Part shown: in pieces, positions 40,019 to 62,786 of the stretch
How positions within the stretch are numbered: position 1 is the stretch's first letter
Layout: each line of letters starts with the position of its first letter
From: a virus
Taxonomy: Duplodnaviria > Caudoviricetes
DNA: 62,786 bases
IMG/VR virus record: IMGVR_UViG_3300025168_000083
Coordinates: 1-62,786 of that record
Direction: 5' to 3' (one strand)
Notes under the pieces: generated by a model
Told to the model about the DNA's origin: nothing
The model's database searches: none
What the model saw: only the letters and a program-made list of their open reading frames with translations
Position numbers and translations under genes: made by a program

Positions 40019-40027
40019 GAGTAACTT

Positions 40028-44500: not shown

Positions 44501-45343
44501 AGAACTTACGAGGCTGTAGACGTATCTTGGGCTGGTACTCCCGAAACCACAACAATTCTCCAAGGGAATTTTAATGTAAATAATAATCCCTACTTGTTTA
44601 AAATGGCAGCTGCTGCTAAGATAAAGCCAGAAGAATTCCAAAAACAATTAAATGGGATTATAGAAGAAGTACAAAGAGATTACAGTAGTAACGAACTTAT
44701 GATTGAGTTATATGATAAAGCAATGAAGCTGAGGGGGAACAGGAGTTTAGAAGGGTTTGGTGTTTTAGCTAATTTTGAAGAATTTATGAGAAAGTTTAAG
44801 CCTACTTTAATAGATTTAAACGTAGAGGTTTTAGTTAGAATGGAAGAGCTTTTACCTGAGTCATATACAAAAGCTGCTGGATACAGACCGAACATAGATA
44901 GGTTTGGGGGAGGTAGCCCAGATAGACTTACAACGGTTCGTAGATATCCTGACGTTAGAATGAGTTTTAATAACGGCAACAGATCTTTAACAGGCCCAGC
45001 TAGGCCAGATGGAATGAATGCAGCTTTGTACCGTATTGACGAAAACGGGAAACGTGTTGGAGAGCCTATTAATGTTGCGTGGGCATTTACAGAAGACGCT
45101 AAGATGATATATGATAACCCCTCAGACAGCACCCATTTTCAAATGGGTGGGGGGATAAAAAATTGGTATGCGGCTGATTTGGGTCCGTTTGGTCCCGCTA
45201 AACGTGCTCCTAGTCAATACAGAAGAGACCCGGCGGTAGTAGATAAAGCAATGTATCCAGAAACAGATCCTAGATTTATGGGAACAAAACATATAACTTA
45301 TCCCACGGCAATAACTCCGGGCGATATGACACCAAAACCTTAA
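41531..45343 (+). CDS. Large internal virion protein (gp15 position), 1270 aa
   Basis: Long helical ORF, no Cys seen by eye, precedes the giant protein. Confidence 0.7.
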   Translation: MSDSSLYFAQSNKPTPEELGTQIDEEKRREGEYDPTSEGSFNTRNIVFPSVVNDRITQIEQDGPKTVGESDELLFVHALGKAEQDGVTPEIMSEEIKTTTAITTNLGRLENDKTTESFRDKVNNQQFENTDGEVMPEVFQTTATESIALLGIYSQGKNLGEGFEDLTVVQEAYARGLMDRYKELKARKSNIEGTTKPIVMSEVMSEVFEEMFGQNLPTDIQTPFGSTTETFLPNGEGSLSEAAKNSIGVLRDVHKEEDVTDTGDAPLYTTENIQSRDQVREAIDTVYRMYQEGGDVENSPLSGHEIMNNRIVTYENTGLLVSRALEEFESGTPSDEVDYQYLASMLNNMGITDIDISKPFSAADIPMYIEKLSKAQEVLSSDVDSLYEAKLDVVSPARRYERMVGRHVGAQVGKEFTTATEVNTLINDVLMNPGNYSDGARLKILTTYNMATEAFADILAQEEVDTKFVTDLDAFRRNRNMPSNATSAKNSVFMFFGADESARKGFVEGHPTMQTLATEAYEFWDKAYGEIFTKVLEETGQENVQAPSLMAVLQLADPNWTFGNDIPWDKIDDTNMAVLTEMLVQESSKRNLKDKPDILNSLDGYFQSSMEIMTDAEAYKALPIEQKIKVAKSVKLMTYLLDTGNLFDSPQKATVIRDLLTGNAPKEKIEKRMRAITLFARELKKGGGNIFASVDFAAIAKDPTSDEAMAVLAEMETVYTRSADRIQGYVGRLYKGSDLIAYAEPATMFGTQGKIYGGDAAVATLQSDLLSLGLTDNLDDKKEVEILRLTLQNGFGATLTKAQLEEVADYGYTSFGENQKAVTLMLNGLFRDPEERAIYNTAYAALNSTGERFSIVDVLELAGFGTAKPGNVSNGSFTVDQNLPTGQTGLIAIDNSKLPEAVENIPPLESEDEWKDKHEYDRVATLYSLYNGPTAVSTPEQQERFQKNARVLYAHSKGRDLDSDQFYRRVSGNEEINTGMTKFFRDDLNRRTYEAVDVSWAGTPETTTILQGNFNVNNNPYLFKMAAAAKIKPEEFQKQLNGIIEEVQRDYSSNELMIELYDKAMKLRGNRSLEGFGVLANFEEFMRKFKPTLIDLNVEVLVRMEELLPESYTKAAGYRPNIDRFGGGSPDRLTTVRRYPDVRMSFNNGNRSLTGPARPDGMNAALYRIDENGKRVGEPINVAWAFTEDAKMIYDNPSDSTHFQMGGGIKNWYAADLGPFGPAKRAPSQYRRDPAVVDKAMYPETDPRFMGTKHITYPTAITPGDMTPKP

Positions 45344-45365: not shown

Positions 45366-48300
45366 ATGAGCGAACGACGTTGGTCAGTAGCACCGATCCC
45401 ATTAACTACTAGTAGTATCTTTGAAGAAAAACTTCAGAGAGACCAAATGAAACTAGTTAATGAACAAATGGCAGAAATACCATTTGCAAAGAACATGCCT
45501 GCTTATGGAACAGCTATAGACGCACCTATGGTCTTTCAAGACATGGACACAGGAGAGTATGTTAAGGGAATGCTGGAGTATGGAGAAGCTTCTAGGCAAC
45601 AGCTAAAAGGTGACTACGCTAGAGGATTTCTTGCTACAGATGCAGGATTCCGCCAACAGTTTTCTACTCAGGTTGTCGGAGGTAGAGATCTTTCTCTATA
45701 CAATGTTGATTCAGAAAAACTAGATTTATTAGAAATACCGAGTCATGTATCCGAGCAACTGCTTTCGGGGATGAAGGGGCCGCAATATAACTTAGCACTG
45801 TGGGACTATAGACATGCTCATGATGTTCCTATTATAGATTTGTTTGCAAGCGGACCTGAGGATTTTCTAAATATGGAGCCGCCTGAAGGGTGGTCAACCA
45901 AGGCTGCTATAAACGAATTCAAAGAACGAGATCCCAAACTATACGCTTTAATGGCTACAACTCTTGGGGGAGACGCTGGTATTGAAGAGATAACTAGAGA
46001 CTCTAGAAACCCAGTAGAGTTCTTTTATGATTTAAACAGACGACAGCAGCTATTAGCAATTACACAAAGTCAACAGATGTTTGAAGACAGAGCTGGATTT
46101 ATATCTAGTAATTATGAAGGATTAAAAAACTTTGTTGTAAATGGTATTTTAGATGACCCAGACATGGCAGCATCTTTTGCTTTGTCTGTTGGATTAGCAG
46201 CCTTTACAGGAGGTACTAGCCTTCTTGCTGGAGCCGCTTTTAAGATTGGCAAGGCGGCTAAGACAGCTCACAGATTTAATAAGGTACTAGGATCGGGACG
46301 AGCAGTTGGTAGAGGGTTAGCTATTAGTGCCAAGCACGCAAGAACTGCTCAAGTATTGTTACCAGAAAACCTTGGCCCAACATTAGTTAGGACCGTTCTG
46401 TTTAAAGAAAAGTACGCAAAGATGGGCGGGGTCGCTAAGTTTGGCGTGAATAGGTTATCTGATTCTGTTGAAGGTACAATAAGTGGAGCGTTAGCTGAAA
46501 CCTTTAATCAGAAAAGAAAAAAGGATTTAGGTCTTATAGATGAAATGAGCTATGCTGCTATTGCTAGCGAAGCTCTTACTGAAGCTGCCTTATCCCCGTT
46601 GATTAATCCTATCTTTGGTGGTGTCTTTAAGGGAATAGGTATGGTAGCTAGTGTACCCGGTACGATTATGAGTCAAGCCTTTGCAAACACACTAGGTAAA
46701 AGGGAACTAGGAAAGTACTTACAAGAGACTACACAGACAGCTCTTAGTATGTTTAATCCACAAGCAATGTTAGATTCTATGGATGTGTATGAAGGTAAGG
46801 AAACTTTAATAACTAATATTAATAGTTTATTAGGAGAAGAAGAATCCTTAAAGGATGGTCTAGAACTTGAAAGTACTTTAATTCCAATTCTTGAAACTGT
46901 CCGAGCTACTTCTGGATTGGATAGCCCTAAGTTTTTAGACGCTTTAAATGTAGCCGTAGAAAATATAATTACCGCTCGATCAGCATCACAAAGTGCTAAT
47001 AAAGAAATGACAGGAGCCGAACTAGGCGTTAGTATTATTACTCAACTAGCCACAGAAAATGCAGAGATGGCTACTACCCTTGGAGAAAAAGGGTTTGAAC
47101 ATATAATGGCTGTTATTTCAAATCAACTTACTATGATTACGAATGCTAAGAAAGAAGGATTATCTGTAGAAGAGTATTTTTCTAGGGTAGTAGAAGACGG
47201 AACATATTTTGATTTGCTTCCAGAAGTTCTTAAGCAGGAGGTCTATAAGAAGGCGGGTGGCGAAGAAGCCGCTAAGAAGTTAGGGGATACTAAACTTAGA
47301 GAAATCGCAGCAGAAGTTCAATTAGATATTATTAAAGAGTCTAAAAAAATTCACACTGAGTTTAAGAAGAGGGTTGAATCAACCACAAAAGAAGTAAACG
47401 AAGTTAATGAAAGTGTACAGAATATAAGCGAAGCAACGGGAATACCAATTCCACCTAGAGTTGATCCTTCCCCAGAACCTACAGTAACACCTCGACCAAG
47501 AAGTAACGAGGGTGCTACTGATACGGCTCCAGCAGAGGAACAGAGTAGTGATGAGGCCCAAGCACCTGTGGACGATCTTACAGAACAACACCGCAAAGAA
47601 ACAGATCTGACAGAGACACAGAAAGAACTGATCAACATTAAAGAAGAATTAATGAAGAGGCGTAGAGATGCCCGTAATGCAGAAACTGTAGATAGAAAAG
47701 AACTTAAAGAGATTGACAAGAATATTAAATCTGTAGATGCGTTACTTACTAGAATTGAGACTCTTAGAAAAGAAGTTACAAATAGTATTAACGCCTACTT
47801 AACTGAATCAGGTCAAAGTAAAGAACTCATTGAGCTTGGTAGAACACTTAGAAAGTTAACTGAACAAATAGACAGAGCAATGGAAAAACTTAAGCCAATG
47901 CAAAATGAGATTAATCAGAACCTTGAAGACCGTAGTACACTTTCTGCAATCTTTACTTACTTCGGACCCGACTCGGCTGAAAAATATCCAGATGGTGTGT
48001 TCTTTGAAAACTTAAGTCCTGAACTACAAGAAACCTTACAGAGAATACATGACTCATTAAAATCTGGAACTGCAAAGACATATTTGGCTGAAGTCATAGC
48101 TGGTAAAAAACTTTCTGTAAAAGAAATTAAATCAAGAATTGTTAAAACTTTACAGAGAAAAACAGAACAGTTAAAAGAAAAGTGGGAAAACGATGCGTTG
48201 GTTGATCATATTCGAGACGAGGAAAAGAAACTAGAAGAACTTCGTGGTAAGTATAATGTAGAAAACGCTAAGTACCAACAGGAAAACATCAAGAAAGATC

Positions 48301-51300
48301 TGATTCAAATGACTCAGGTGATAAGTATTGCAGAGGTTGCAAAGCGTAAGAAGGATGAGATTCGTTCTTTGGAAACCCGACGACGATCTATTGACGAACT
48401 AATGGCAGATAAAGACACTGTTTCAATTCAAGAGGTGTATGTACGTTTACCTAGAAAGTCTAAGCTTAGGGGTGAATTAAAGGCAAGATTAAAAGACACA
48501 GACGGTGACGGCACAATAACTGTGGATGAGTTAAATGAAAGACTAGACGAAGACTTTGCGGACAGTAGGAAAAATATAGTCTCGACTATAGGAACCGATA
48601 CAAGATATTCTCCTATGTCTAGAACGAGACAAACTAAACGAATTTCCGCAATGTATGGTAACAGGTATGCTCATGAGATTTCTGATGAGGAAATCTATGA
48701 TGTTGATTTTGATATAGATTGGCTCGTAGAAAACAACACCCCCGGAACCGCTCTACGAGATGTGAAAATTAGTGTAGAAGAAGATCACAAGTCTTTCAAG
48801 CAATGGTTAGCTAACTTGTCTGTAGTTGGGCAAACGTCTAGCAATGTTGCAAACGACGGTACAATTTCTACGTGGAGACTTCTTTCTAACATGCCAGATT
48901 ACTTCTGGGATTTAGGCCTACCTATTCATATTATATTTAGAAAAGCAATGGTAAACCCAACAGAGAACGCAGGGTCTGAAACCAATAGTACTGGAAGTGA
49001 AGAAAACCCTTGGGATAGCGTATCTAACTTAAGCAGCGTTAGGTGGAGATATTCTGAAATTAAAAGCATACTTGAACGATGGGAAGTAATTTCTAAGGCT
49101 AGGCTAACTGGATATATGGAGTCGTTTGGAAAAGAACTTGCCAAGGAAATGGCTAAGGATCTATTGAGCGAAAGCAACCCATCTGGCTTAACCAATCTTG
49201 AAGCAACCGCAGAATATTTAAATGAGGCTATAGTTGCAGAGCGTAACTTTAACACAGAAAAATTTAATGAGTCGGGTTATATCTTAAGTATAGATAGGGC
49301 TACTGGATTCCCTACAGAATTTGCATCCAAGGATCAAGGCTACTTATACGAGGCAGGAGTTAGGAACGCCATTCGCACAAGAGTAGGATACATGATGAAC
49401 AATGCTAAGTTTAGACTGTTCATTAAAGAGAAGGCTGGCATTGAAATCTTTTTAACTAAGCCCGGAGAAACTGCCGAAGAAGCACAGGCTAGATCAGTAA
49501 AAGAAATTGATACTATAACTGACTATATTATTAATAACCTTAGTCTGGTTTTAAATGAAGTAGACGCTACTCATCCACAGTTTATAAACTTTACTCTAAC
49601 TGGGTTTGGGGATGGCTCAATCTCTTGGTCGCCCGCTCAAATGGCAGGATATGCTATTGTTGATACATTTGTTGAAAAGAGTGTACCAATGAAATCAAGG
49701 CTAACAGGAATTCAAGAAGCTACAGAATACGCTAACACAGAAGAGATGAGAATAACCGGCGAGTCTGTAATGTTAGAGATGCCTAGAGAAGGCGATATAA
49801 ACTTCGCTGCTCCTATTTCTCTTGCAGACAATCGTTTAAACGTAGAGAATTATAAGTTTAGGTTACGTATTAAAGAAGTACTTAAGAAAGCAAAATCAGA
49901 AGTACCTTTAACTCCTAAGGAAAAGAAGGTTCTATATAACTCAATACAGAGTAGAAGATTCAAAGACGAAACTGATCCCGTTGCTGATGAAATGGATATG
50001 TATTTAGTACCTCAAATTGTTGGTGGACACGCCCAAGAAGAGTTTATAACAAGAGATCAAGCTAAAGACTTTATGATGGAGCTGTTCTTGGACATGGCTC
50101 AAATAGGCCACGCAATAAATCAAGACTCCATGACAATAGCCAATGGTGGAAGCCTTAGATTTAGAAACACAAAAGAAAACCCAATGCCTCTTGCTTTCGC
50201 AAACCTAAACTTAGGGTATGATAATATTACCCCACTTGGTTCTCAGTTAGCTGAAACCTTGGCATTAGAACAAATGCATCCTGATTTAAGCGGAATGAGT
50301 GAAGCCGCAGCAACAATGCACATTAAGTTTGTTAGTGAGTTTAAGTCAAAGTGGCAAGCCGCTAATCCCGATAAGGAATGGTCGGCAAGTGTTATGTTAG
50401 ATCCTAGTAACCACACTGATCAAGTAGCTAGTGGTCTTATGATTGTCCAACTCCTTTCTAAACTAGGATCTGGAGAAGCAGCTGTAGAATTGGATAAGAT
50501 AAGGTTAATGATAGACGATATTGACTTTGAATTATTGAATGAGGACGGCACGGCACAACGAAATTCTGACGGGACATTCGTAAGTCTTGCTCTGGAGGAC
50601 GTATATGTAGAGACTGGATTAAATATCCTTGGGCATATCAAAGATAAAGATAAGGATAACAAGTACATACAAGGCTCGGGCAAGTGGTTAACAGATGTCT
50701 TTGGATGGTTAGACCAAAACGAAATAACAAATAAAGATAATTATAGAGAGAAGATGGCAGAGTTTGAAGCAAGCGGAGACACCGAAAGTGTCCGTAAGGG
50801 AAAAGCAATTAGAGAGTTCTTTAAAGTTCCTGTTATGCGTCGTCTTTATGGTGGTGGTTTAGATTCATTTAAACTAGAGTTTATGGGAATGACTGCTAAT
50901 AGTCGAGAGATTATAGACGAGTTAAATGGTGCGTTTGGAATAAAACTTACAGACGCTGAAACAGAAAATCTAGGCACAGTGCTTCTCTCTGCTTCTGCAA
51001 TGAATGGGGTTCATATCTTAGATGCTGCTTTAGGGTTTGAAGGTAAGATCCGAAATGCTGCTATGGCCTTCTTAAAAGTTGGTAGAGAGCAGCAGGTGGA
51101 AACCGAGATGTGGAGAGATGTTGTCCGGTCTTCTAATATCCCAAACCAAGACTCTGGAAATTCTCAAGGCCCGACTGAGTTGGCTCCTGTTGATGGCGAA
51201 TCTATGCATATCATGAATCGTCTTGACCGTGTTAAGAGAGCCCTTGAAGGTAAGATTAGATATTTAGCAGAAAGAACTCCAGAAGGTGCTACGCCTGAAA

Positions 51301-54300
51301 ACATTGCTAGAATAAAAAAGAAGTATGATAACAGATATGGAGAAGCACTAAGATACATAGAAGAACTAGAGTCTAAGGGTATAACCATAGAGGATAAGTC
51401 TCCACACTGGGAAAGGCTTCAGGAAATTTTACATGGCGGTGAAGTGGGTTCGTGGGCTCGTATAAGTTTATTCAGGGCTACTAATATTCTTAACGCTTCT
51501 ACATATAAACTTAATATGAAAAGAATGAAAGCTACAGCTGATATGTTTGGCTTTGAGGACTTTGAGCCCTCCGATTGGATGGGACTAGAAGACCACCTTC
51601 TTTACCACTTAAGCCTTCCTACCCAAAGATCTCCTAGATCCTTCCATAAGGGTAAGCACGATCCCCACGGTATTTTTGCTAATAGAGTAGCTATTCAACC
51701 AGAACAACTTAATGAGTTTATGGCTATAGCAGAACAGAATGCAATAGACGATCATGGAGAATTTAACCAAGCAGACTTTGATGAAGCTCTCGCCTCTTTC
51801 TTAACGAACGAAGAGCCAGATGCTTTCGGTATGTTTGATATAGAAGACAATGTATATAAAGGAATGTCAAGAGAAGAAGTAGATGCTGAGTTAGATCGGT
51901 TGATGGATATGGATCAACTTATGTATATGGCTAGTGTAGACAGGCTCCCATCAGAAATATTCCCTGACTTTGTTTCGGATGAGAGTGATGTAGTCGTAAT
52001 GGACACAATGTTAAGAGAACACTACGAGCATAACAAAAGAAGATTTGAAACTCCTTCGGGAGAAAAGGATAGAACTCTTGCAACAGAAATAGCAAGAGAA
52101 GAACGGCTTCTTGATTTAGGAGACTCTGGACTAACGATCTTAAAGTACCGAGCTAAGATTGCTGGGGGTGTACGTAGCCCTAGAGTGGCACGAGTATTAG
52201 GAAAGCCACTCATTCCATATCACAGACGAGAGCTTTCTATGCAAGAAGCTATTGGTACAAGAGATAACCAAGACTTGTATATGTCTACAGTGGAACCTCA
52301 AGGATTACTGAGTATGACTCCTAGATATAGGAGAAGTTCTTTCTTTAGTAGAGGCATTCCTGTATTGCAAAGATCCGCAGTTCAAAGAAAGATTAACGAA
52401 GTGCTTGAGCCAGTCTTAGCTATAGATCCTAAGATACAAGATCCTAAGATGAAGGGTGTTAGTGTATTTGACACCCCTACTGGTAAGGGATTATTAGGAT
52501 GGCATCAACCCTACCAGAGGTCTAGTCTTCCCAAGGCTATGCCCTTAAAGATAGATGAGATGATTGACTTAGGTATGGATGATGAAGCAGGCCGAAAGGC
52601 CGCAAGAATTCTTAATGGAATGCGGCAATGGGCTTCTTATAGAGATGATGTTGGAGATGATTTAGATAACCCAGATGGTCTCCTTTATTGGTATGTGGTT
52701 AGAGAGATTGAAAGATCACGAGCAGAAATGCTAGAAAACTTACCTGACTACTCTCGATTCTCAAAGAATGAACAAGAGAAAAAGGCACACGCTAGAAAAT
52801 ATAGAATGCAGTGGTTAGAAGGATTGCACGCTATTACACATTTCTCAAGAGATATCAAGGGTGCAGAAAGTAAGGGAATGACCTTAGCAGACAAGGCAAG
52901 AACGTTAGCTGTTCAAGCAGCAGACGATTTTGATTCTCCTGAAAGCAAGCAACGGTGGATAGATGTTCTAACAACTACAATCACCGAAGACAACCCTCAC
53001 GGTACTTTCTTATCCGCTCCAACTAAGCTACAAAAATCTCTAGAGTTTATTATTCCTAGAGAAAACGTTGTTCTTATGGATAGAATTAAAAGCGTGCTTG
53101 AAGATCCTACTGCTACGTTATCAACCAATGATTTGCAGATGTTAGCACAAATGATTCAGTCTACTGACTTCCCATATCATCTATTAACTATTATGTACAA
53201 GAACGAGGTATTACCTAATGTTCTTAAAGAGTTTACGGTAACCGACGAAAACGGAGTAACCTCTAAGCCCTATGCTGATTTAGAGTATGATGTCATAGGA
53301 GAAGACGGTTCGCCTACCGGAGAAAAAGCTAAGGTATGGGCTAACCCTAACATGTGGGAAAACTACATACAGGCAGAACACGTTCATTCAATCATTGCAA
53401 ACGCTAAGGTATGGATTGAAGAGAATGGTGCAGATCAAATTATATTTGATACTTTAATTGAAGAACAACTAAGTTCCAATGAAGCACAGGCAAAACAAGG
53501 GATAAAGGATTTTGCTGTATACTTAGAGAACACCAACCCCGATATTGTGGGGGACGCTAGACCAGCACAAATGAGAAGCAGCTTCTTCCCAGAACAAGTT
53601 CTTACGCCAACAGGATTAGTAGGAAAGGGACAGTTAGCACTGTCTCCTGCTAAGGCAATGGAGTTGTTTGGGTTATTAGAATCTTTCTCTTTATTAGAAA
53701 AAATTAAAAGAAGTAACTGGTCTGGACAAGCTATTGGCTTTGTTAAAGATCCAGTAACAGGTAAGATTACAGAATCAAAGCCTACATCAAGAAGAATCAA
53801 AGATGGCCTTGGGCATAATGAAAACGATATACGGAAGGCAGAGGTTCTTAGAAGCAGTGCTCTTGAAAGGGTTGTCGGTCTTGGCGGGAAAGCAGATGTA
53901 TTAAGGGCAACAGATACTACTCGGTCTGTTGAAAGCACAGGTCAGATTGAAGCTATTGATCTTGACTCTTATCGAAGAGCCCAACACAGAGACGATCTTT
54001 CAGCTGCTTGGATGGAGTCTTATATTAGTCCAGTATCTAAACAACTTGGATACATGAAGTCTACAAACATTGATGAAGTATTTGGGCCTAGTCTTAGAGA
54101 AGAATTAGAGTTAATAATTGACAGAGCACGGACTGAAAACACCCTTGCTAAGAAGGGCGAAGGAGGGCTATACTCTAATACTGTTATGTGGTTAGCTATT
54201 ATGTTAGAACTCCCCCCTCATGATGTTGATACGCTAAACCCAAGAGGACACCTGTACGATACCTTTATCGGAGGAAGATTCTCAGAAGAAACAAATGCAA

Positions 54301-57300
54301 AGGCTTTTGCTACTGCTCAAAAATTAATGAGACAGATTAAGCAAATCGGTTCTGTAGATGGATTCTACTACGGACTAGAACGACAAGCTCCACTGATTTC
54401 TACTATTAGAGAGTGGGCATCTAACGATGACTTTGCTGAAGCAACAACAAGAGATATTGATATTGAAAATAAATCAGCAGTATCAAACTTCCTTAACTGG
54501 CTTCAGAGTAATAAGACAACAAAAGAACTGGAGTTCTTAGGTTTTGCAGAAGACGAAAACGGAAATCTTGTATATAAAAAGAAGTCCAAAGATCCTGAGT
54601 TAGACCCTCTTAAAGAGTTAGAGTTTATTATTAACTTTGGTTTAGGGCAAGAACGTTTGATGGTTGAGCAAGACGAGTCTCTTATGTTGTTTGGTGATCA
54701 AGAATCTAAGCTCAATACCACAGGCAAAGACTTAATTAAACTAGTTTCTAAACAAGGTAAGTTTGATGACGCTGTTAGAGATACGCAGGATCCTCATTTA
54801 ATAAGGGTCAATAATGAATTGAACAACATGAAAGACTCAATGACACCAGCAAACTTCCAAAGATTTAGAGCTTTAATTGCTAGGATGTATATGATTAATC
54901 CTCTTAACTTAATGGACTTAAGTTTAGATTATCAGAATACTAGAGGACGTAGTTTTGTTACTAGAGATAAAGAAGGAAACTTTGTTATCCGCATGGGAGG
55001 AATGCTTGCGAAGCCAATGAGTGATCCAAACATTGCTCTTATTTTCGCTCATGAATTAAGTCACGTGGGAAGAATGAGATGGATTGAAAATAACCAAGGA
55101 ACTTGGAGACATTGGGTTGATCTTTATCACTCTAAGGCCGGACGTAGCCTTCTCCGTAAGATTGTAACTGCATGGCATGGCGGGAACTATACAGCTCAAG
55201 CAAAACAAGAATTCGAAAGTTACATGGAAAACCCAGAAGAATTCATTGCTGCTTTAACTTCTTATTATTTAATGAATGACTCTCTCCCTGAAATGAATCT
55301 TGATTACAATGAAGGGAAAATCTCTGGAATAGCAGGGGGCATTGTTGGGAAGATTATGGACTTTGTTAGAAGAATCTTTATGAGAACTTCCTCAGTTCTT
55401 ACTAACTTCCATTACCAAGATCCCCGTCTGTCTCAACATGTGGAAAACCTTGTTCAAAAAACTTTAGGTTGGGATCCTATGGCAAAGAAATCCTTTACTG
55501 AAGTTCAGAACAAGGGAACAGAAAGAGAAATGTTCTTCTGGGATAAAAGATTTGAAGACACAACTCCAGAGCTAGAAAACGATCCAACGCAGTTTAAGCA
55601 GATGGTAATAGAACATAATAAACTTCTTAACTTAGGAGAAGAGGGAAGAACTCCAGAAGAGGCTAATAGATTCTGGGTTTTAGACTCTGCTATAAACGAC
55701 AGTACTGACGCTACTCATGTTATGACTTCTGGTATAACAAGATACGATCATCTTGTCGCGCATCAGCAAAACATGGCAATGTTTGGAGGGATTAATGGTA
55801 CTCTGGATATTGGTAAAATGTTAAACTCTATGGATAATATGGAGGGAGATGCGGTTAGTATTATTCAATATTCCTCAGCTTTAGAGTATTGTATGGAAGC
55901 TTGTAATAGGGAATTTGGAGATCAGTTCCAAGACGGAGTAGGACTCACAGCAGCCAAGGTTACAAAAGCATTATCAAAGGTTTTACCCAGTCTCAGTACT
56001 AGTAAACACAGGGGTGAGGGAGCCTACTCACATATGATGGTAGATCTAACAGTAGGTAAAGCAGGAGCTAACTATACTTGGAATGGGCCACATCCTTTTG
56101 TTATTTTATTGACTCAATTAATTAATGATGATATTGCTACAAGTACAGGACAGTATACAAACGTAAAGGGAACGCCTTCTGTAGTTAGAGTGATTAATGA
56201 TATCGCCTTGTATAAAGATTCAGTAACAAGTTCAATGGCGGCGATAGGTACAACTTTACAGCCATTCTTTACTAGAGCTTTAGGTCAACAAGTGTCTACA
56301 GAAAAACAAAGAGAAATTATGTCTGCTGTATATGAACAGGTTGCTATTAAATCAGACAACCCCAGCCATGAAGTAACACTTCCAGAATTACAAGAATCCG
56401 CAATGAGTGAAGAGGATTTAAAAATAATACATACTGAAATAACGAATACTGCCGATAATATTAGATTGTTTATGGAAGACTATCGCCAAGCAGGAACTGA
56501 ACTTGGGTTGTTTAAATCTACATCATTCAGAACACATATACCGTTTAAATTAAACAGGCTTATACTAGAAAGTGAACCAAGAGATGGTTTTGTTGAGAGC
56601 ATGAGTAAAATGATCCGCGATAAAATTATTAGTGAGTCTGAAGGAAAATTAGATCCTCTTGTTATGTTTGCTGCAAACTTAATTCCTAGATTTAACACTA
56701 CTCAAAACTTAGTTGATGATTTAAAGAAACTAAAAAGAATTAGTCCAGAAATGTATGGCTATATTTTACATAAGGCTGCTGAAGCCCACTATACACAAAA
56801 CGGCCAAATGGATGAATCTTTTGATACTATTCGAGGAATGAGACAGATCGTCTTTACTGATCTAGATAGTTCGGCAGATCCACAAAGACAGGCTAACGCT
56901 GTAGAATTATTTAGGTTAGGTATTATTTCAGCTATGAATGAAATGTCCCAAGGTAGAACTACTGCCGGTTCTTTACAAGAGTTTGGGGTTAACTGGAACA
57001 ACCTTAAGGATATTTATATTACAGCAATTGATCAAAGAATAGACGGAGAGCGTTTCAATACACTCGATAGTCCCGCACTTGATTCTTTAATACCCGATCA
57101 TATTTACTACTCACCTAAACACGGGCAAAGAAAAAGACAGGTGTTTGAAAATATAGATACTCCTGTAATGGTTCATATGCATAATCTAATAAACCGTGCC
57201 TCAGACGGTATGTACTTTCCTTACGATATGTGGTCCTTCCCTTCAGTTGTAGAAGCATTCCAAGACCCAGCTATACGTCCCCACCTTAACTTAGACCCAG

Positions 57301-59354
57301 ACCAAATGATGGGCGATATGATGAAGGGTAAGGGAGATCAGTTATTTGAAACCCAAATGATGGTAGACCACTTCGGAGTCTTTGGTAATGTTAAAGATCT
57401 TATTAATCTATTTGAAATTGTAGGAACCAGAGGTCATGGGTTTAGAAACTTAGACGGAACATCAGTATCTCTAGGTGTTCAAAAGGAAATGATAGATGCT
57501 GCATCTCAGTTAAGAGGAAAACATGCAGTTACAAGAGGTATAAATTATGTAGCAGATTCTCCTTCCGCATTCGAATCTATGCTAACAAACGCAGCACCCG
57601 GACTTACTAGAACAGTCTTTGGCGGCAACCTCGCACTTGCTACGTTTACTGTTGAGACGCTTGCCAGTACAATGATTGAACTGGTTGGAAGGGGCAACTT
57701 TATGGGATCCGTAAGAAGTTTACTGTCTCCTATATTAGGACTTAATCCAGAATTGCAAAAGAGAGTAGGAAGAGATTTAGTACATACAGTAGAAGCACTT
57801 AGTAAGGGCTTCATACCAGATCATGAAATGCCTGCGAATGCGGACACAGAACAGATGCTCGCAAAAATATTTAACTTTACGGGCCGACAGGCAATGAGAC
57901 CTGCACAGTATATGTTAAAGAGCCTAGCTATTCAAAGAGCTATATCAGCTCGAAACTTTGTTGTAGATAATTTAAAACATAACATGACAAAGGATGATAG
58001 CGGAAGACCTATTAGTAGGTTACATCGTTTGGCTCAGTTGATCCATCAAGAACCTTTAGGAAAGGATCCAAAGGCTATACTAGATCGAATGCGTAGAGCA
58101 GGGTTCTCAGTGTTTATGGACGGGGATATTCAATTAATTACATCCTTATTAACAGCCGGGCTCTTAGATATTGAGAGCGGATCCTTTGGTATTTTGGCTA
58201 GTATGGTAGAAGAAAATACTGAAGTTGAAGCCTACTACAGCCCCGGAGAAATGTTAGCCTCTCTTGCTAGAAGCGACATACGGCCCTCCAGTACAGAGGG
58301 TGGTAGGGGAGTCTATCAAGCAAGGAAAGAAGTTATTGCTGGTCTGAGAATGGTCGAGAAGCAATACATTGAACAGGTTCTGGTAGCCCCCAATGCCTTT
58401 GATGTCTTTACTCCTAAGGTATCCTCTACTGGAGAAGCAGAAGGAACGGGAGCATTAGATACCTTGTTTGAAATCTTTAGGCGATATCCTATGTTGTTTG
58501 TGAGTCAGCACGTTTACAGAAAGATGAACCGACAAAGCCCAATGAAATATGCTTTCGGTCTTACTAGTATGTTGATGTTAGATGTTGTATACATGCTGGC
58601 ACTTAGATTGTCAATGGGAGCAGAGCCAGAAGATATCCTCGAAGAGTTTGAGGATAATCCGGTAGGCTTCAGTATTGGCTACGGTGTCCGTCTTCCAATC
58701 CTTGGTCGATACATGGGCTTGATTGGTGAGGCTATTGCTGCCCTGCCTATGCTTGCTCAGGGTAAGTCCATTAGGCAGCCCGGCGGATTCATTCCTCTGG
58801 GAGCGTTGGAAGCAGCAGCCAAGGGAGTCCTTAGAGCGGGAGATTCAGTGTGGAATAACGAGCCACATAAGTTACAGGATGTCCTGAATGCAATGAGGGT
58901 AGTTCCTATTGCAGGAGATAGGTTACTTGCCTTAGGATACTACACTGCCGCAGGAGACGGTATACAGAGGCGTAGTAATAAGAGCAGCGGTACAGGCACA
59001 TCAAGAAACGCTGAGACTGGAGAACTTCAAACAAGGCATCACTATGGGGTTCCAGAACAAGCCTTTGAAATAAACGAGGCAATGAACCACAGAGTATTGT
59101 TAGAACAGTTTGGAGCACAGATGGAATGGCCGGGATACTCAGAGCCAAAGGATGTTCCGTTTGCAGGAATGACTAGGCAGCAGTATCCTGAGGACATGGC
59201 AGAGGCAGCTCCGACCGCCCCCGCCCCTACCCCTGCGCCGCCTTCAGAACCCGCGCCAGCCCCGGCTCCTGCCCCTCAGGCAGAGCCTACGATGGCAGAC
59301 CGTATAAGAGGACAGGAGGGGTCTTCTGGTAAACTCGCAGACGCACTAGGGTAA
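45366..59354 (+). CDS. Giant internal virion protein, putative virion-packaged RNA polymerase with a zincin domain, 4662 aa
   Basis: TDQVASGL (motif A, D1685), EDVY, REFFKVPVMRRLYGG (motif B R-x3-K-x7-YG), possible motif C HD2099, HELSH...EEFIA. Confidence 0.7.
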   Translation: MSERRWSVAPIPLTTSSIFEEKLQRDQMKLVNEQMAEIPFAKNMPAYGTAIDAPMVFQDMDTGEYVKGMLEYGEASRQQLKGDYARGFLATDAGFRQQFSTQVVGGRDLSLYNVDSEKLDLLEIPSHVSEQLLSGMKGPQYNLALWDYRHAHDVPIIDLFASGPEDFLNMEPPEGWSTKAAINEFKERDPKLYALMATTLGGDAGIEEITRDSRNPVEFFYDLNRRQQLLAITQSQQMFEDRAGFISSNYEGLKNFVVNGILDDPDMAASFALSVGLAAFTGGTSLLAGAAFKIGKAAKTAHRFNKVLGSGRAVGRGLAISAKHARTAQVLLPENLGPTLVRTVLFKEKYAKMGGVAKFGVNRLSDSVEGTISGALAETFNQKRKKDLGLIDEMSYAAIASEALTEAALSPLINPIFGGVFKGIGMVASVPGTIMSQAFANTLGKRELGKYLQETTQTALSMFNPQAMLDSMDVYEGKETLITNINSLLGEEESLKDGLELESTLIPILETVRATSGLDSPKFLDALNVAVENIITARSASQSANKEMTGAELGVSIITQLATENAEMATTLGEKGFEHIMAVISNQLTMITNAKKEGLSVEEYFSRVVEDGTYFDLLPEVLKQEVYKKAGGEEAAKKLGDTKLREIAAEVQLDIIKESKKIHTEFKKRVESTTKEVNEVNESVQNISEATGIPIPPRVDPSPEPTVTPRPRSNEGATDTAPAEEQSSDEAQAPVDDLTEQHRKETDLTETQKELINIKEELMKRRRDARNAETVDRKELKEIDKNIKSVDALLTRIETLRKEVTNSINAYLTESGQSKELIELGRTLRKLTEQIDRAMEKLKPMQNEINQNLEDRSTLSAIFTYFGPDSAEKYPDGVFFENLSPELQETLQRIHDSLKSGTAKTYLAEVIAGKKLSVKEIKSRIVKTLQRKTEQLKEKWENDALVDHIRDEEKKLEELRGKYNVENAKYQQENIKKDLIQMTQVISIAEVAKRKKDEIRSLETRRRSIDELMADKDTVSIQEVYVRLPRKSKLRGELKARLKDTDGDGTITVDELNERLDEDFADSRKNIVSTIGTDTRYSPMSRTRQTKRISAMYGNRYAHEISDEEIYDVDFDIDWLVENNTPGTALRDVKISVEEDHKSFKQWLANLSVVGQTSSNVANDGTISTWRLLSNMPDYFWDLGLPIHIIFRKAMVNPTENAGSETNSTGSEENPWDSVSNLSSVRWRYSEIKSILERWEVISKARLTGYMESFGKELAKEMAKDLLSESNPSGLTNLEATAEYLNEAIVAERNFNTEKFNESGYILSIDRATGFPTEFASKDQGYLYEAGVRNAIRTRVGYMMNNAKFRLFIKEKAGIEIFLTKPGETAEEAQARSVKEIDTITDYIINNLSLVLNEVDATHPQFINFTLTGFGDGSISWSPAQMAGYAIVDTFVEKSVPMKSRLTGIQEATEYANTEEMRITGESVMLEMPREGDINFAAPISLADNRLNVENYKFRLRIKEVLKKAKSEVPLTPKEKKVLYNSIQSRRFKDETDPVADEMDMYLVPQIVGGHAQEEFITRDQAKDFMMELFLDMAQIGHAINQDSMTIANGGSLRFRNTKENPMPLAFANLNLGYDNITPLGSQLAETLALEQMHPDLSGMSEAAATMHIKFVSEFKSKWQAANPDKEWSASVMLDPSNHTDQVASGLMIVQLLSKLGSGEAAVELDKIRLMIDDIDFELLNEDGTAQRNSDGTFVSLALEDVYVETGLNILGHIKDKDKDNKYIQGSGKWLTDVFGWLDQNEITNKDNYREKMAEFEASGDTESVRKGKAIREFFKVPVMRRLYGGGLDSFKLEFMGMTANSREIIDELNGAFGIKLTDAETENLGTVLLSASAMNGVHILDAALGFEGKIRNAAMAFLKVGREQQVETEMWRDVVRSSNIPNQDSGNSQGPTELAPVDGESMHIMNRLDRVKRALEGKIRYLAERTPEGATPENIARIKKKYDNRYGEALRYIEELESKGITIEDKSPHWERLQEILHGGEVGSWARISLFRATNILNASTYKLNMKRMKATADMFGFEDFEPSDWMGLEDHLLYHLSLPTQRSPRSFHKGKHDPHGIFANRVAIQPEQLNEFMAIAEQNAIDDHGEFNQADFDEALASFLTNEEPDAFGMFDIEDNVYKGMSREEVDAELDRLMDMDQLMYMASVDRLPSEIFPDFVSDESDVVVMDTMLREHYEHNKRRFETPSGEKDRTLATEIAREERLLDLGDSGLTILKYRAKIAGGVRSPRVARVLGKPLIPYHRRELSMQEAIGTRDNQDLYMSTVEPQGLLSMTPRYRRSSFFSRGIPVLQRSAVQRKINEVLEPVLAIDPKIQDPKMKGVSVFDTPTGKGLLGWHQPYQRSSLPKAMPLKIDEMIDLGMDDEAGRKAARILNGMRQWASYRDDVGDDLDNPDGLLYWYVVREIERSRAEMLENLPDYSRFSKNEQEKKAHARKYRMQWLEGLHAITHFSRDIKGAESKGMTLADKARTLAVQAADDFDSPESKQRWIDVLTTTITEDNPHGTFLSAPTKLQKSLEFIIPRENVVLMDRIKSVLEDPTATLSTNDLQMLAQMIQSTDFPYHLLTIMYKNEVLPNVLKEFTVTDENGVTSKPYADLEYDVIGEDGSPTGEKAKVWANPNMWENYIQAEHVHSIIANAKVWIEENGADQIIFDTLIEEQLSSNEAQAKQGIKDFAVYLENTNPDIVGDARPAQMRSSFFPEQVLTPTGLVGKGQLALSPAKAMELFGLLESFSLLEKIKRSNWSGQAIGFVKDPVTGKITESKPTSRRIKDGLGHNENDIRKAEVLRSSALERVVGLGGKADVLRATDTTRSVESTGQIEAIDLDSYRRAQHRDDLSAAWMESYISPVSKQLGYMKSTNIDEVFGPSLREELELIIDRARTENTLAKKGEGGLYSNTVMWLAIMLELPPHDVDTLNPRGHLYDTFIGGRFSEETNAKAFATAQKLMRQIKQIGSVDGFYYGLERQAPLISTIREWASNDDFAEATTRDIDIENKSAVSNFLNWLQSNKTTKELEFLGFAEDENGNLVYKKKSKDPELDPLKELEFIINFGLGQERLMVEQDESLMLFGDQESKLNTTGKDLIKLVSKQGKFDDAVRDTQDPHLIRVNNELNNMKDSMTPANFQRFRALIARMYMINPLNLMDLSLDYQNTRGRSFVTRDKEGNFVIRMGGMLAKPMSDPNIALIFAHELSHVGRMRWIENNQGTWRHWVDLYHSKAGRSLLRKIVTAWHGGNYTAQAKQEFESYMENPEEFIAALTSYYLMNDSLPEMNLDYNEGKISGIAGGIVGKIMDFVRRIFMRTSSVLTNFHYQDPRLSQHVENLVQKTLGWDPMAKKSFTEVQNKGTEREMFFWDKRFEDTTPELENDPTQFKQMVIEHNKLLNLGEEGRTPEEANRFWVLDSAINDSTDATHVMTSGITRYDHLVAHQQNMAMFGGINGTLDIGKMLNSMDNMEGDAVSIIQYSSALEYCMEACNREFGDQFQDGVGLTAAKVTKALSKVLPSLSTSKHRGEGAYSHMMVDLTVGKAGANYTWNGPHPFVILLTQLINDDIATSTGQYTNVKGTPSVVRVINDIALYKDSVTSSMAAIGTTLQPFFTRALGQQVSTEKQREIMSAVYEQVAIKSDNPSHEVTLPELQESAMSEEDLKIIHTEITNTADNIRLFMEDYRQAGTELGLFKSTSFRTHIPFKLNRLILESEPRDGFVESMSKMIRDKIISESEGKLDPLVMFAANLIPRFNTTQNLVDDLKKLKRISPEMYGYILHKAAEAHYTQNGQMDESFDTIRGMRQIVFTDLDSSADPQRQANAVELFRLGIISAMNEMSQGRTTAGSLQEFGVNWNNLKDIYITAIDQRIDGERFNTLDSPALDSLIPDHIYYSPKHGQRKRQVFENIDTPVMVHMHNLINRASDGMYFPYDMWSFPSVVEAFQDPAIRPHLNLDPDQMMGDMMKGKGDQLFETQMMVDHFGVFGNVKDLINLFEIVGTRGHGFRNLDGTSVSLGVQKEMIDAASQLRGKHAVTRGINYVADSPSAFESMLTNAAPGLTRTVFGGNLALATFTVETLASTMIELVGRGNFMGSVRSLLSPILGLNPELQKRVGRDLVHTVEALSKGFIPDHEMPANADTEQMLAKIFNFTGRQAMRPAQYMLKSLAIQRAISARNFVVDNLKHNMTKDDSGRPISRLHRLAQLIHQEPLGKDPKAILDRMRRAGFSVFMDGDIQLITSLLTAGLLDIESGSFGILASMVEENTEVEAYYSPGEMLASLARSDIRPSSTEGGRGVYQARKEVIAGLRMVEKQYIEQVLVAPNAFDVFTPKVSSTGEAEGTGALDTLFEIFRRYPMLFVSQHVYRKMNRQSPMKYAFGLTSMLMLDVVYMLALRLSMGAEPEDILEEFEDNPVGFSIGYGVRLPILGRYMGLIGEAIAALPMLAQGKSIRQPGGFIPLGALEAAAKGVLRAGDSVWNNEPHKLQDVLNAMRVVPIAGDRLLALGYYTAAGDGIQRRSNKSSGTGTSRNAETGELQTRHHYGVPEQAFEINEAMNHRVLLEQFGAQMEWPGYSEPKDVPFAGMTRQQYPEDMAEAAPTAPAPTPAPPSEPAPAPAPAPQAEPTMADRIRGQEGSSGKLADALG

Positions 59355-59447
59355 ATCGACTAGGGGGTCACGAATTTGTCTGGGGTAGTATATGGATGGG
59401 TGTCCATCCTTGTCCCCCCGTACCCCCCTTGACAAAGGAACTAACAC

Positions 59448-59780
59448 ATGTCACTCAACTCACGAAACACATCGATCCGCAATATCACTCATTATATCGT
59501 TGCATATAATAAGTCTGGAGGCAACCTTAAGGAAGTTCTCCATTGTGGAGTAGATGATAGTAATGATGCAAGACGTAAGGCACACAGGTTCATGGAATTG
59601 GCGAAAGCCGAAGGCATGGCTGAAGTGGCTTATTACTTTGTACTTACTAATGGCGAGGAAGGTAGGAATCATGATGTTCATAGTGTCTGGGTAGTAAACA
59701 AATGGCAACGTGACGAGAGTAAAGAATCATTCTTTACTAACGAATTCGCTAGCCATCCTGTTAACTACGTAGACGCATAG
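59448..59780 (+). CDS. Hypothetical early protein, 110 aa
   Basis: AAGGA RBS; first ORF after the structural block. Confidence 0.7.
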   Translation: MSLNSRNTSIRNITHYIVAYNKSGGNLKEVLHCGVDDSNDARRKAHRFMELAKAEGMAEVAYYFVLTNGEEGRNHDVHSVWVVNKWQRDESKESFFTNEFASHPVNYVDA

Positions 59781-59855
59781 CCGAAAGGAAGTACTGTTGT
59801 AGCAACCAGTACTTCCTCTGTCGTGAATGGTCTCACGGCACTGACGAGGCAGACC
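59780..59855 (+). ncRNA. Type II hammerhead ribozyme with pseudoknot
   Basis: GCC-GAAA-stem III(10 bp)-UC-stem I(8 bp)-CUGACGA-GGC; loop GGUC can pair with 3' GACC. Confidence 0.92.
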
Positions 59856-59873
59856 CTCATAAGGAGCTAAACA

Positions 59874-60206
59874 ATGTTTAGCCATGCCCTTAACTGGGCT
59901 TACCGGGCTGGTCGCACTATCAAGTGGACCAGCATTACCCTCTTCTTGCTCATCGGTTGCATCTTCGGACTCATAGGAGTCTGGATGCTGGTTGGTGATA
60001 TGTCATCCCCATTTGCGTGGATGACCACCATGTCCGGCTTCATGTGCTTCTACATGTTGCTGGTGCTGGCCTCAGAGTACCTAACAGACTACTCTGATGA
60101 CTATGCAGATGAGCCCTTGGTCAAGCTTGGACAAGGTGACCACGAGTGGATTGTTCCTCCTCCGCCAACAGGCGAAGGCTCAGACGATCACCCTGACGTT
60201 TGGTGA
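59874..60206 (+). CDS. Membrane protein with two TM helices, 110 aa
   Basis: AAGGAG RBS; two hydrophobic segments and an acidic C-tail. Confidence 0.75.
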   Translation: MFSHALNWAYRAGRTIKWTSITLFLLIGCIFGLIGVWMLVGDMSSPFAWMTTMSGFMCFYMLLVLASEYLTDYSDDYADEPLVKLGQGDHEWIVPPPPTGEGSDDHPDVW

Positions 60207-60231
60207 TGATTGATGCTTCGATGATTTGATT

Positions 60232-60270
60232 AGTCACCCATCTCTTAACGGAGGTGGGTGGCTTTGTATT
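60232..60270 (+). terminator. Stem-loop terminator candidate
   Basis: AGTCACCCATCTC-TTAACG-GAGGTGGGTGGCT followed by TTGTATT. Confidence 0.6.
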
Positions 60271-60296
60271 GAGAGCCTACCGGTAGGCTCTATAAC
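60269..60296 (+). promoter_or_regulatory. Sigma70-like promoter overlapped by a perfect 20-bp palindrome
   Basis: TTGAGA-16 nt-TATAAC; AGAGCCTACCGGTAGGCTCT at 60272-60291. Confidence 0.55.
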
Positions 60297-60355
60297 TATT
60301 TGTTCCTAGCACGTTGCTAGGATTCGTTTTATGAAATCCTTTAGGAGAATCTTAA

Positions 60356-62164: not shown

Positions 62165-62173
62165 CCCCTAACC

Positions 62174-62252
62174 GAGGTGGCAGGAGGTAAAAGCCTGCCA
62201 CCTCTTCCCGAGAGTCAAGTGACTCTCACACACAGGGAATGTGTTATTCCCT
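62174..62252 (+). promoter_or_regulatory. Three tandem hairpins between RNAP-2 and the next gene
   Basis: GAGGTGGCAGG/CCTGCCACCTC; GAGAGTCA/TGACTCTC; AGGGAAT/ATTCCCT. Confidence 0.55.
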
Positions 62253-62275
62253 CATATTTTTTCGGAGGCCATACC

Positions 62276-62786
62276 ATGGCTAAGCGAATCGTGAAAACCC
62301 AAGGATTCGGACGCGTGTCTGAATGGGAACGTACACTCCGCACAGGTTCTAAGAACGGGGTGTTGTACTTGATCTATGAGTTGTACTCTACGAGCAAGCA
62401 ACGCCGCAGTCTGAGGTTCTGGCCCTGTGACGATCCACAAGCCTTTGTCGACAGAGGCATCCGCTACTCAGCGAATGTCACAGAATCTGTCGTCAGGGAG
62501 CAGGTGGGGCAGTTTCAGGATGTGGTGGAGATCCCCTACGACTCCAACAATCCTCGCCACAAGGTTAACAACTGGGTTAACATGTGGACACCGAGGGACA
62601 ATGAGTTGGAGATCCGGGGTACGGAGCCAAGGGAACAGTTCAGTCTCATCGTTGAGCTAAATGTTCCGGCTTCGGGTGTGAAGTTCTCATACCAAGGCCC
62701 GTTTGTGGCTGACCAGAATCATGCCTTCGGGGCATTGACTCGTCAGTTCAACGCTCACTTCCAAGGGTGCAACATTGAATCGAGGG
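62276..62786 (+). CDS. 5' part of the ~197-aa hypothetical protein (continues at the window start)
   Basis: GGAGG RBS; MAKRIVKTQGFGRVSEW... stays open to the window end. Confidence 0.85.
   Translation, partial: MAKRIVKTQGFGRVSEWERTLRTGSKNGVLYLIYELYSTSKQRRSLRFWPCDDPQAFVDRGIRYSANVTESVVREQVGQFQDVVEIPYDSNNPRHKVNNWVNMWTPRDNELEIRGTEPREQFSLIVELNVPASGVKFSYQGPFVADQNHAFGALTRQFNAHFQGCNIESR
62508..62786. repeat. Terminal direct repeat / circular overlap, right copy
   Basis: Same 279 nt as the window start, with 3 substitutions. Confidence 0.97.

Follow-up and report, generated by a model that had tools for sequence, protein, structure and literature searches.

The window, by which we mean the whole 62,786-nucleotide stretch of IMG/VR virus record IMGVR_UViG_3300025168_000083 that was analyzed, encodes a giant protein of 4662 residues. 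We read it, with moderate confidence, as the largest ejection protein of an uncultured T7-supergroup podophage, carrying at approximately residues 1400-2280 a very diverged and rearranged module that descends from a single-subunit RNA polymerase (ssRNAP); we infer that the protein is packaged, ejected, and used in early transcription. That a rearranged polymerase-derived module lies within an ejected giant protein is probable, and the polymerase activity of the module is putative. Virion-carried ssRNAPs are regarded as the hallmark of one family, the Schitoviridae, and a passage of PMC13434306 describes the virion RNA polymerase (vRNAP) as confined to it. Alongside the N4 enzyme, the module may represent another kind of polymerase carried in virions. 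If so, there would be a second lineage, residing in a T7-like genome and invisible to sequence searches, which would alter the picture of early transcription and DNA entry in many uncultured phages. Structure-function studies would also gain a rearranged polymerase of natural origin, and it would follow that enzymes missed by standard annotation can lie concealed in giant internal virion proteins labeled "hypothetical." Within the literature searched, we came across no account of a protein of this sort, the nearest being a guess made from size for phage StenR_269.

The genes to which the argument refers are the following.

45366 to 59354, + strand: the giant gene, 4662 aa, 2 Cys
39179 to 45343, + strand: four ORFs of 279, 354, 165, and 1270 aa, directly upstream of the giant gene, 0 Cys each
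60356 to 62164, + strand: ORF602, a divergent RNAP-like gene of 602 aa, ~1 kb downstream of the giant gene, by PHROG RNA polymerase families (E = 1.8e-5 and 3.8e-5) and motif strings
6114 to 8558, + strand: canonical T7-like RNA polymerase, 814 aa, by PF00940 (4.1e-74) and phrog_414 (1.7e-154)

The position and length of the giant ORF are as first read from the sequence. The only cysteines in the whole protein are at 3509 and 3513, in agreement with the single pair noted by eye near ~3509, and the N4 vRNAP sequence does have 0 Cys, as had been stated. The protein belongs to a family of at least 18 giants of 3.4-5.7 thousand residues with homology over their full length. They are nearly Cys-free, the 18 having, when pooled, 23 Cys in 84,033 residues, and the other window ORFs 129 in 12,380. 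The family alignment used below has 22 rows, providing 20 to 21 relatives per column at 23-52% identity to the window's giant; L021 is a further relative, 29% identical. The whole giant protein produces nothing significant or relevant against Pfam, PHROGs, or PDB sequences. Each third of the protein was compared by tblastn with 50,697 phage records, and 25 kb of the window was run through megablast, both with zero matches, and no related loci were seen in the scanned viral contigs. When 14 family members were run against PHROGs, one unnamed PHROG matched a single member.

The giant gene is the last of a run of Cys-free genes, and that cluster bears out its earlier placement in the ejection-protein slot. 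The four upstream ORFs, presumed to be further ejection or internal virion proteins, have no family match; their syntenic counterparts in L021 are 228, 342, 133, and 2481 aa. The genome has a T7-like layout in which a single strand carries all genes, and the nearest portals are mostly from marine and uncultured T7-like phages. Like T7 gp16 (IVP-D), the giant is the largest of a Cys-free cluster in a T7-like structural module, whereas it matches no PHROG internal-virion-protein family, and its cluster follows the terminase gene instead of preceding the tail fiber gene. The concept that IVP-D hosts cytoplasm-destined domains is already published (Hardies et al. 2016, PMC4819975), and part of that same paper treats N4 gp50 as an internal virion protein of the T7 gp16 type within which a polymerase is embedded.

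The polymerase-like module and the motifs of its N-terminal part are located as follows.

49563 to 52205, + strand: polymerase-like module, ~aa 1400-2280, delimited by conservation, profile blocks, and AlphaFold models
50409 to 50438, + strand: motif A-like NHTDQVASGL, from residue 1682 (D1685), by conservation and its D-x3-S-G pattern
50595 to 50606, + strand: DxY motif EDVY, from residue 1744, by conservation and profile rank
50811 to 50858, + strand: motif B REFFKVPVMRRLYGGG, from residue 1816, by conservation, profiles, and a predicted helix

These three strings, together with KHDPHG (from 2097), were the basis of the sequence-only reading, and all four are located where it had placed them; the T7 strings that it had given for comparison, FDGSCSGIQH and QDIY, are both present in the T7 RNAP sequence. 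It had also named beforehand D1685, R1816, K1820, and Y1828 as the residues whose lack of conservation would count against a polymerase, and each of them is found in 21 of 21 relatives at 23-52% identity. In motif B, P1822 is additionally kept in 19/21, the exact register is placed at rank 1 of 1139 by the independent N4-like and T7-like profiles alike (permutation P = 0.0005 and 0.0055, respectively), and AlphaFold has the motif closing a confident predicted helix that terminates at Y1828. The "YG" claimed for this motif stands for the Tyr and fails for the Gly, as G1829 is unconserved, being G in 6/21. The DxY motif has D1745 in 21/21 and Y1747 in 18/21, its exact register ranks 2 (T7) and 3 (N4) of 1149, and a D-x-Y is present in 15 of 15 N4-like rows. 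In motif A, S1689 is kept in 20/21, and the D-x3-S-G at D1685 matches D537-GSC-SG in T7 and D559-GVT-NG in N4; motif A is barely recognized by the profile blocks at the D1685 register (rank 6/1141 for T7 and 103/1141 for N4), and pLDDT there is under 50. L021 keeps D1685, R1816, K1820, and Y1828 and has E for D1745. The 22-row alignment has few invariant columns, and these five residues occupy some of them.

The features C-terminal of motif B, plus one candidate N-terminal of motif A, complete the set.

51474 to 51536, + strand: pre-thumb block, aa 2037-2057 (FRATNILNASTYKLN...), by T7 dot-plot and null test
51612 to 51695, + strand: T/DxxGR-NPQG-like block, aa 2083-2110, by both profiles, conservation, and a predicted hairpin
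51828 to 51848, + strand: candidate motif C GMFDIED (D2158), by conservation, the N4 motif-C block, and a short predicted strand
50122 to 50127, + strand: Q1586-D1587, candidate second catalytic Asp as an alternative to D2158, by conservation and the T7 motif-C block

Residues 2037-2057 match the pre-thumb helix at 318-338 of T7 RNAP and 330-350 of N4 mini-vRNAP, with N2040 kept in 20/20. The T7-like and N4-like profiles both put T/DxxGR-NPQG on 2083-2110 (R2091, G2102, and R2107), where AlphaFold predicts a β-hairpin at 2083-2094 bearing R2091. Its columns are R2091 20/20, N-x-Q-G2102 with N 12/20, Q 10/20, and G 19/20, and R2107 19/20, and most relatives have three extra residues separating R2091 from N-x-Q-G. 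A DxxGR motif had not been located by the sequence-only reading; this block is such a motif, and it contains the KHDPHG string that had been taken for motif C. The D2099 column of that string is N 12, D 5, T 2, and G 1 of 20, so that assignment falls, even if the spacing of 271 from Y1828 that had suggested it is indeed close to the 273 read from the N4 sequence for Y678-D951. The likeliest candidate for the second catalytic Asp of the module is D2158, whose column is D 17, E 1, N 1, and Q 1 of 20, with E in L021; the N4 motif-C block ranks it 1/1145 with a permutation P of 0.135, and the T7 block ranks it 647. The T7 motif-C block instead sets D812 on D1587 at rank 4, a residue kept in 21/21 where the family consensus is I-H-D-Q. 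ILDAALG (D1886) was also tried as motif C and rejected, its column being unconserved. A second set of polymerase motifs was sought at 2280-3150, and none was found.

The resulting order is A, DxY, B, pre-thumb, T/DxxGR, and then candidate C (D2158), which is non-canonical, and with that order a working palm is not assured. On the favored reading, the module would retain the O-helix nucleotide-binding residues R1816, K1820, and Y1828 plus D1685, D1745, and R2091...G2102...R2107, and the segment with pre-thumb and T/DxxGR would have come to be placed after the fingers, not before motif A. The rival that survives best, to which we give a real if minor chance, accepts the descent from a single-subunit polymerase and has polymerization lost, leaving the ejectosome with a translocation element or a clamp that binds DNA or NTPs, one that would, for example, hold the leading DNA end or recruit polymerases. 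That the family alignment contains no invariant Asp C-terminal of motif B, that D2158 is lost in 2/20 relatives, and that the segment order is rearranged all speak for it, as do the phage's possession of its own 814-aa RNAP and ORF602 and, in the relevant part of PMC13434306, the recruitment of host RNAP by T7 gp16. Against it, the strict invariance of R1816, K1820, Y1828, and D1685 at ~25% identity is what an active site predicts, and the second carboxylate could come from the invariant D1433 or D1587.

Homology of the module to ssRNAPs is supported by profile blocks tested against permuted nulls, by language-model neighbors, and by weak Foldseek matches. The top three cells of the T7 dot-plot are the pre-thumb (first, z = 5.3), motif B, and T/DxxGR blocks, and an independently built alignment gives the same cells; against 150 column-permuted nulls they have P = 0.013, 0/150, and 0/150, respectively. 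An hhalign comparison of the family core to the N4-like core scores 36.7, which 0 of 100 block-permuted nulls reach (mean 22.7, maximum 33.8), and to the T7-like core the best is an 18-column block at P = 0.036. With the columns of the family alignment reordered, the hhalign local score is 26.2 in both orders, and the greedy alignment is colinear over 472 columns once they are reordered, up from 231. In a protein-language-model atlas, 6 of 7 among the matches listed carry PF00940 or N4 vRNAP Pfam families at scores of 0.85-0.88, where scores under 0.9 are a lead only. The two AlphaFold models of the module have pLDDT 71.2 and 68.1, with the palm region at low confidence. Foldseek finds nothing at E ≤ 0.001 in PDB with either model, and the weak matches include Pol A-superfamily polymerases as 6 of 32 for one model and 16 of 49 among the matches listed for the other, mostly T7 RNAP, and N4 mini-vRNAP is not among the matches listed. 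Against BFVD, the single match is an uncharacterized protein of an uncultured virus at E = 7.4e-4.

That the polymerase resemblance is convergence or chance, the region being an α-helical ejection-protein domain with no polymerase kinship, we consider doubtful. Every library search was negative: no RNA polymerase family in Pfam or PHROGs is matched by the giant or by 14 family members; the family HMM has no match to N4 vRNAP (0.8 bits), to the window's 814-aa RNAP, or to ORF602; and aligning the module to the window's own RNAP with BLASTP gives chance-level pieces only. The Foldseek matches are non-significant and the atlas scores below 0.9, and R-x3-K-x7-[YF] is found twice in the giant, at 1350 and 1816, indicating that short patterns are not rare at such length. 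Chance would also have to account for a composite of D-x3-[SN]-G, D-x-Y, and R-x3-K-x7-Y at the observed spacings whose residues fall on invariant columns and which, out of 20,000 shuffles of the protein, only 12 contain. Three separate profile blocks beat permuted nulls, two profile families, independent of each other, give the same registers, and polymerases recur in the weak fold matches of both models. An R-x3-K-x7-YG pattern is common to the Pol I family, and this, with Taq polymerase, Pol theta, and M. smegmatis Pol1 occurring in the weak Foldseek matches, could suggest a Pol A-type DNA polymerase or other nucleotidyl transferase instead, a reading we think very improbable given that D-x3-S-G, DxY, pre-thumb, and T/DxxGR-NPQG are RNAP-type features seen in T7 and N4 and that the phage already encodes its own DNA polymerase.

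Among known systems, N4 gp50 of the Schitoviridae is similar in being a giant (3500 aa) with 0 Cys that is ejected and has an embedded single-subunit polymerase (as given in parts of PMC13434306 and PMC13492108; ejection of the window's giant is our inference), in the motif B form K-x-P-x5-Y-G-x-G, in a candidate motif C of the F-D type, and in being the last and largest gene of the ejection-protein operon. The window's giant differs in being ~1100 aa longer with an HExxH module, in having its blocks rearranged relative to the N4 order of T/DxxGR, A, B, C, and in residing in a T7-like, one-strand genome with a full-length T7-like RNAP rather than an N4-like one. The N4 vRNAP Pfam domains PF21769, PF21894, PF21624, and PF21867, which are present in all 120 N4-like proteins listed, do not match the giant (E ≤ 1) or 14 family members. 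With no N4 vRNAP Pfam, RNA_pol, or HMM match, and a motif order differing from both N4 and T7, "N4-like" does not hold as a statement of family membership, and by these comparisons the giant is not a member of the N4 vRNAP family. What stands of the RNA polymerase core originally proposed is the set of invariant residues matching motif A, DxY, and B, without the N4 label or the motif C at D2099. T7 RNAP (gp1) and its family PF00940 share profile blocks at T7 318-338, 424-444 (T/DxxGR-NPQG), and 627-647 (motif B), plus D-x3-S-G and DxY, whereas PF00940 misses the module, the block order differs, the module sits inside a 4662-aa structural protein, and an HD-type motif C is lacking after motif B. 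The nearest precedent in concept is the putative vRNAP of Stenotrophomonas phage StenR_269, a large, Cys-free, helical protein of a non-N4 podophage put forward as a virion RNAP; in the part of PMC10747016 dealing with it and with the large proteins of Zobellviridae, the proposal rests on size, Cys absence, and helicity. In the phage collection, tblastn finds no similarity to the window's giant.

Besides the giant, the phage has one RNAP gene and probably a second, ORF602, which has a syntenic homolog of 615 aa in L021. If the favored reading is followed into infection, the giant would be packaged and then ejected unfolded via the tail like N4 gp50, and inside the cell its module would transcribe the leading genome end. 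Early genes, including the adjacent ORF602, would be expressed by the module, whose transcription might help draw the DNA in, and the 814-aa T7-like RNAP would take over later. The strongest form of this, an active segment-swapped ssRNAP in at least 18 giants feeding a three-polymerase cascade from giant to 602-aa to 814-aa enzyme, with the phage needing no host RNAP even for the first nucleotide, we put forward only tentatively. If it is true, IVP-D-type virion polymerases would be ancestral to podophages or of multiple origin. Neither 59.3-62.8 kb nor 1-6.2 kb yielded a repeated hairpin promoter, the two hairpins preceding ORF602 are terminator-like, and the search for repeated promoter words gave a sole 12-mer occurring at least 3 times. 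In the region presumed to be early, sigma-70-like sites number 1 versus 3.6 expected and 6 versus 9.1 expected, which is weak evidence.

The giant contains one more recognizable element, in its C-terminal third.

55050 to 55064, + strand: HELSH (HExxH), aa 3229-3233, of a metalloprotease-like module

Pfam SprT-like matches 2 of 14 family members, with a best E of 0.004 that is below Pfam's cutoff, and the HExxH is kept in all 16 of the 16 giants covering the site and also in the L021 giant.

The open reading frame at 45366-59354 (+) has 4662 open codons, and the four strings that the sequence-only reading took as motifs of an N4-like RNA polymerase (RNAP) core in this giant protein lie at residues 1682, 1744, 1816 and 2097. 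The T7 strings quoted for comparison occur in T7 RNAP, and N4 gp50, the virion RNA polymerase (vRNAP) of N4, has R424, D559, R666, K670, Y678 and D951 at these positions. When residues 1120-2280 are used as the query of an exhaustive HMMER search, 44 proteins are found. About 17 are giants (3.4-5.7 thousand residues, 23-31% identity), with homology spanning the whole length, and a word-based search adds one relative at 52% identity. Counted in a 22-row local alignment of the family, D1685, D1745, R1816, K1820 and Y1828 are invariant (21/21 relatives), so the loss of D1685, R1816, K1820 or Y1828 that was to count against a polymerase core is not seen. S1689 is kept in 20/21, P1822 in 19/21 and Y1747 in 18/21; G1829 is poorly kept, with G in 6/21. 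The 5183-aa giant of metagenome contig L021 (29% identity, 0 Cys) retains the same conserved residues except that D1745 is E.

Pfam, PHROG, PDB-sequence and HMM searches give no match to polymerase families, and the PF00940 model of RNAPs does not recognize the giant protein. Block-level similarity to alignments of N4-like vRNAPs and T7-like RNAPs is nonetheless found. The motif B blocks of the N4 and T7 profiles rank position 1812 first of 1139 in exact register (P = 0.0005 and 0.0055), and the DxY blocks, also in exact register, rank 3 and 2 of 1149; motif A is poorly recognized (T7 rank 6, N4 rank 103 of 1141). In an all-against-all dot-plot of 21-column cells with 150 column-permuted profiles as the null, the top three T7 cells pair 2037-2057 with T7 318-338, motif B with its T7 counterpart, and 2090-2110 with T7 424-444 (P = 0.013, 0/150 and 0/150). 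The N4 profile independently places 330-350 on 2037-2057 and 427-447 on 2094-2114, and a second family alignment, built separately, reproduces the result. By hhalign the family core scores 36.7 against the N4-like core, versus 22.7 ± 3.6 (maximum 33.8) for 100 block-permuted templates. Of the 7 protein-language-model neighbors listed, 6 are RNA_pol or N4 vRNAP clusters (scores 0.85-0.88, a lead only). Foldseek against PDB finds nothing at E ≤ 0.001 for either of two predicted models, which have pLDDT 71.2 and 68.1 and are unreliable around D1685. Among the weak matches, 6/32 for model 1 are Pol A-type polymerases, and for model 2 polymerases make up 16 of the 49 listed out of 61; they include T7 RNAP, mitochondrial RNAPs, N4 RNAPII, Taq, Pol theta and Pol1, and N4 mini-vRNAP is not among the matches listed. 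The module quite probably descends from a polymerase.

Two of the original motif assignments have to be revised. D2099 had been taken as motif C, but its column holds N in 12, D in 5, T in 2 and G in 1 of 20, which rules it out as the catalytic motif-C Asp. The DxxGR motif, said not to be clearly present, is found around it: hhalign against the T7-like alignment places residues 2090-2107 on T7 424-441 (GRVY...NPQG...K), and in gapless scans the T/DxxGR blocks of both profiles rank position 2083 first of 1136 (P = 0.011 for T7 and 0.11 for N4 by permutation), in registers that put T7 R425 and N4 R424 on invariant R2091. G2102 (19/20) aligns with T7 G436, and R2107 (19/20) with T7 K441 and N4 R440; hence KHDPHG is the NPQG part of the motif, with the caveat that the spacing from R2091 to N-x-Q-G is three residues longer in most relatives. 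Judged from sequence, the second catalytic carboxylate has two candidates: D2158, on which the N4 motif-C block ranks first of 1145 and whose column is N or Q in 2/20 relatives, and D1587 (consensus IHDQ), which is invariant and where the T7 motif-C block fits at rank 4. Of the readings that assume polymerase descent, an active virion RNA polymerase has about even odds, and an inactive polymerase-derived module is about half as likely.

Along the giant protein the order is D1433 and D1587 (both invariant), the motif-A-like D1685, DxY at 1745, motif B at 1816-1828, a poorly conserved insertion, a pre-thumb-like block at 2037-2057, the T/DxxGR-like hairpin at 2083-2110, and GMFD at 2155-2158. 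In T7 and N4, pre-thumb and then T/DxxGR come before A, DxY, B and C, in that order, whereas here they follow B. The simplest reading is that two neighboring segments were swapped; the conserved motif B occurs once only, and no further polymerase blocks are found up to residue 3150. The N4-like family label does not hold, since domain models and motif order both fail membership with N4 gp50; the likeness is in the concept of working. In the literature searched, supplementary files excepted, no rearranged polymerase core is described in an ejection protein of a T7-like phage. The virion-polymerase idea has already been voiced for large Cys-free proteins of other podophages: the relevant passage of PMC10747016 suggests it for StenR_269, solely on the grounds of its size, its helicity and the absence of Cys.

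The window is the entire virus record (62,786 bases, completeness estimate 93%), with a T7-like layout and every gene on the + strand by PHROG and Pfam scans.

Features of the genome
6114-8558, +, canonical RNAP, 814 aa (PF00940, 4.1e-74)
+, gp2.5-like SSB, primase-helicase, DNA polymerase, exonuclease and ribonucleotide reductase (PHROG/Pfam scans)
+, portal, scaffold, major capsid protein, tail tubular proteins A and B (PHROG/Pfam scans)
31103-35989, +, 1628-aa protein with phage fiber repeats and right-handed beta-helix (Pfam 3.6e-7 and 5.8e-7), probably a tail spike or fiber
+, large terminase (PHROG/Pfam scans), between the fiber gene and the next four ORFs
39179-45343, +, four consecutive ORFs of 279, 354, 165 and 1270 aa without PHROG/Pfam family match, followed by the giant gene
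60356-62164, +, ORF602, a very divergent second RNAP-like gene of 602 aa, about 1 kb downstream of the giant gene

Compared with those of T7-like phages, marine ones among them, the portal reaches no more than 33% identity. The 814-aa RNAP is at most 31% identical to any RNAP among 2,726 matching phage records, so the phage branches deeply within the T7 supergroup. A 279-nt direct repeat, 99% identical, lies at both record ends (1-279 and 62508-62786), making the unique genome about 62.5 kb. Because an ORF from 62177 reads through it, continuing at 3-362, the repeat is more likely an overlap left by assembling a circular or permuted genome than a physical end.

The ejection-protein slot proposed for the giant gene is supported by cysteine depletion. 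C3509 and C3513, the pair already seen by eye, are its sole cysteines, and the four upstream ORFs have 0 each; 18 family giants together have 23 in 84,033 residues, and N4 gp50 has 0. The 22 other window ORFs plus the four upstream ones have 129 in 12,380 residues. The four ORFs are probably the other ejection proteins; their L021 equivalents have 228, 342, 133 and 2481 aa. Elsewhere in the giant protein, an HExxH at aa 3229-3233 (55050-55064) is invariant in the 16/16 giants covering the site, with sub-threshold Pfam SprT-like matches in 2/14 family members, and may mark a metalloprotease module that perhaps cleaves the giant protein itself or attacks host proteins. An EF-hand-like loop, DTDGDGTITVDEL, lies in the N-terminal third at aa 1044-1058 (48495-48539; Pfam EF-hand_5, E = 0.02, below cutoff).

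Conservation, context, Cys depletion and block-level similarity are established; the mechanism is drawn by analogy. The model is N4 gp50 (PMC4819975, PMC13434306, PMC13492108), in which a polymerase sits inside an internal virion protein of the T7 gp16 type and, once ejected, transcribes early genes. Likewise, the giant protein would be packaged in the virion, ejected and refolded inside the cell, where its module would transcribe the leading genome end.

ORF602 matches PHROG RNA polymerase families weakly but specifically (1.8e-5 and 3.8e-5) and has the T7-type motif strings DRRIRVY, IDAYASG, RNEIKPAPVSGVYG and TIHDSEG. A homolog also follows the giant gene in L021 (26532-28379, 615 aa, 22% identity, E = 4e-15), keeping the motif-A and HD motif-C strings with the motif-B Tyr changed to H, so a functional link of the two genes is plausible. 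Sigma-70-like promoters are not enriched after the giant gene, a result that carries little weight given the unidentified host. The 150-nt gap that precedes ORF602 contains two terminator-like hairpins with T-rich tails (60232-60263 and 60304-60322). G+C is 0.48-0.51 at 58000-62786 and 1-2000, versus about 0.38-0.45 elsewhere in the window, and this stretch coincides with the presumed early region, ORF602 included.
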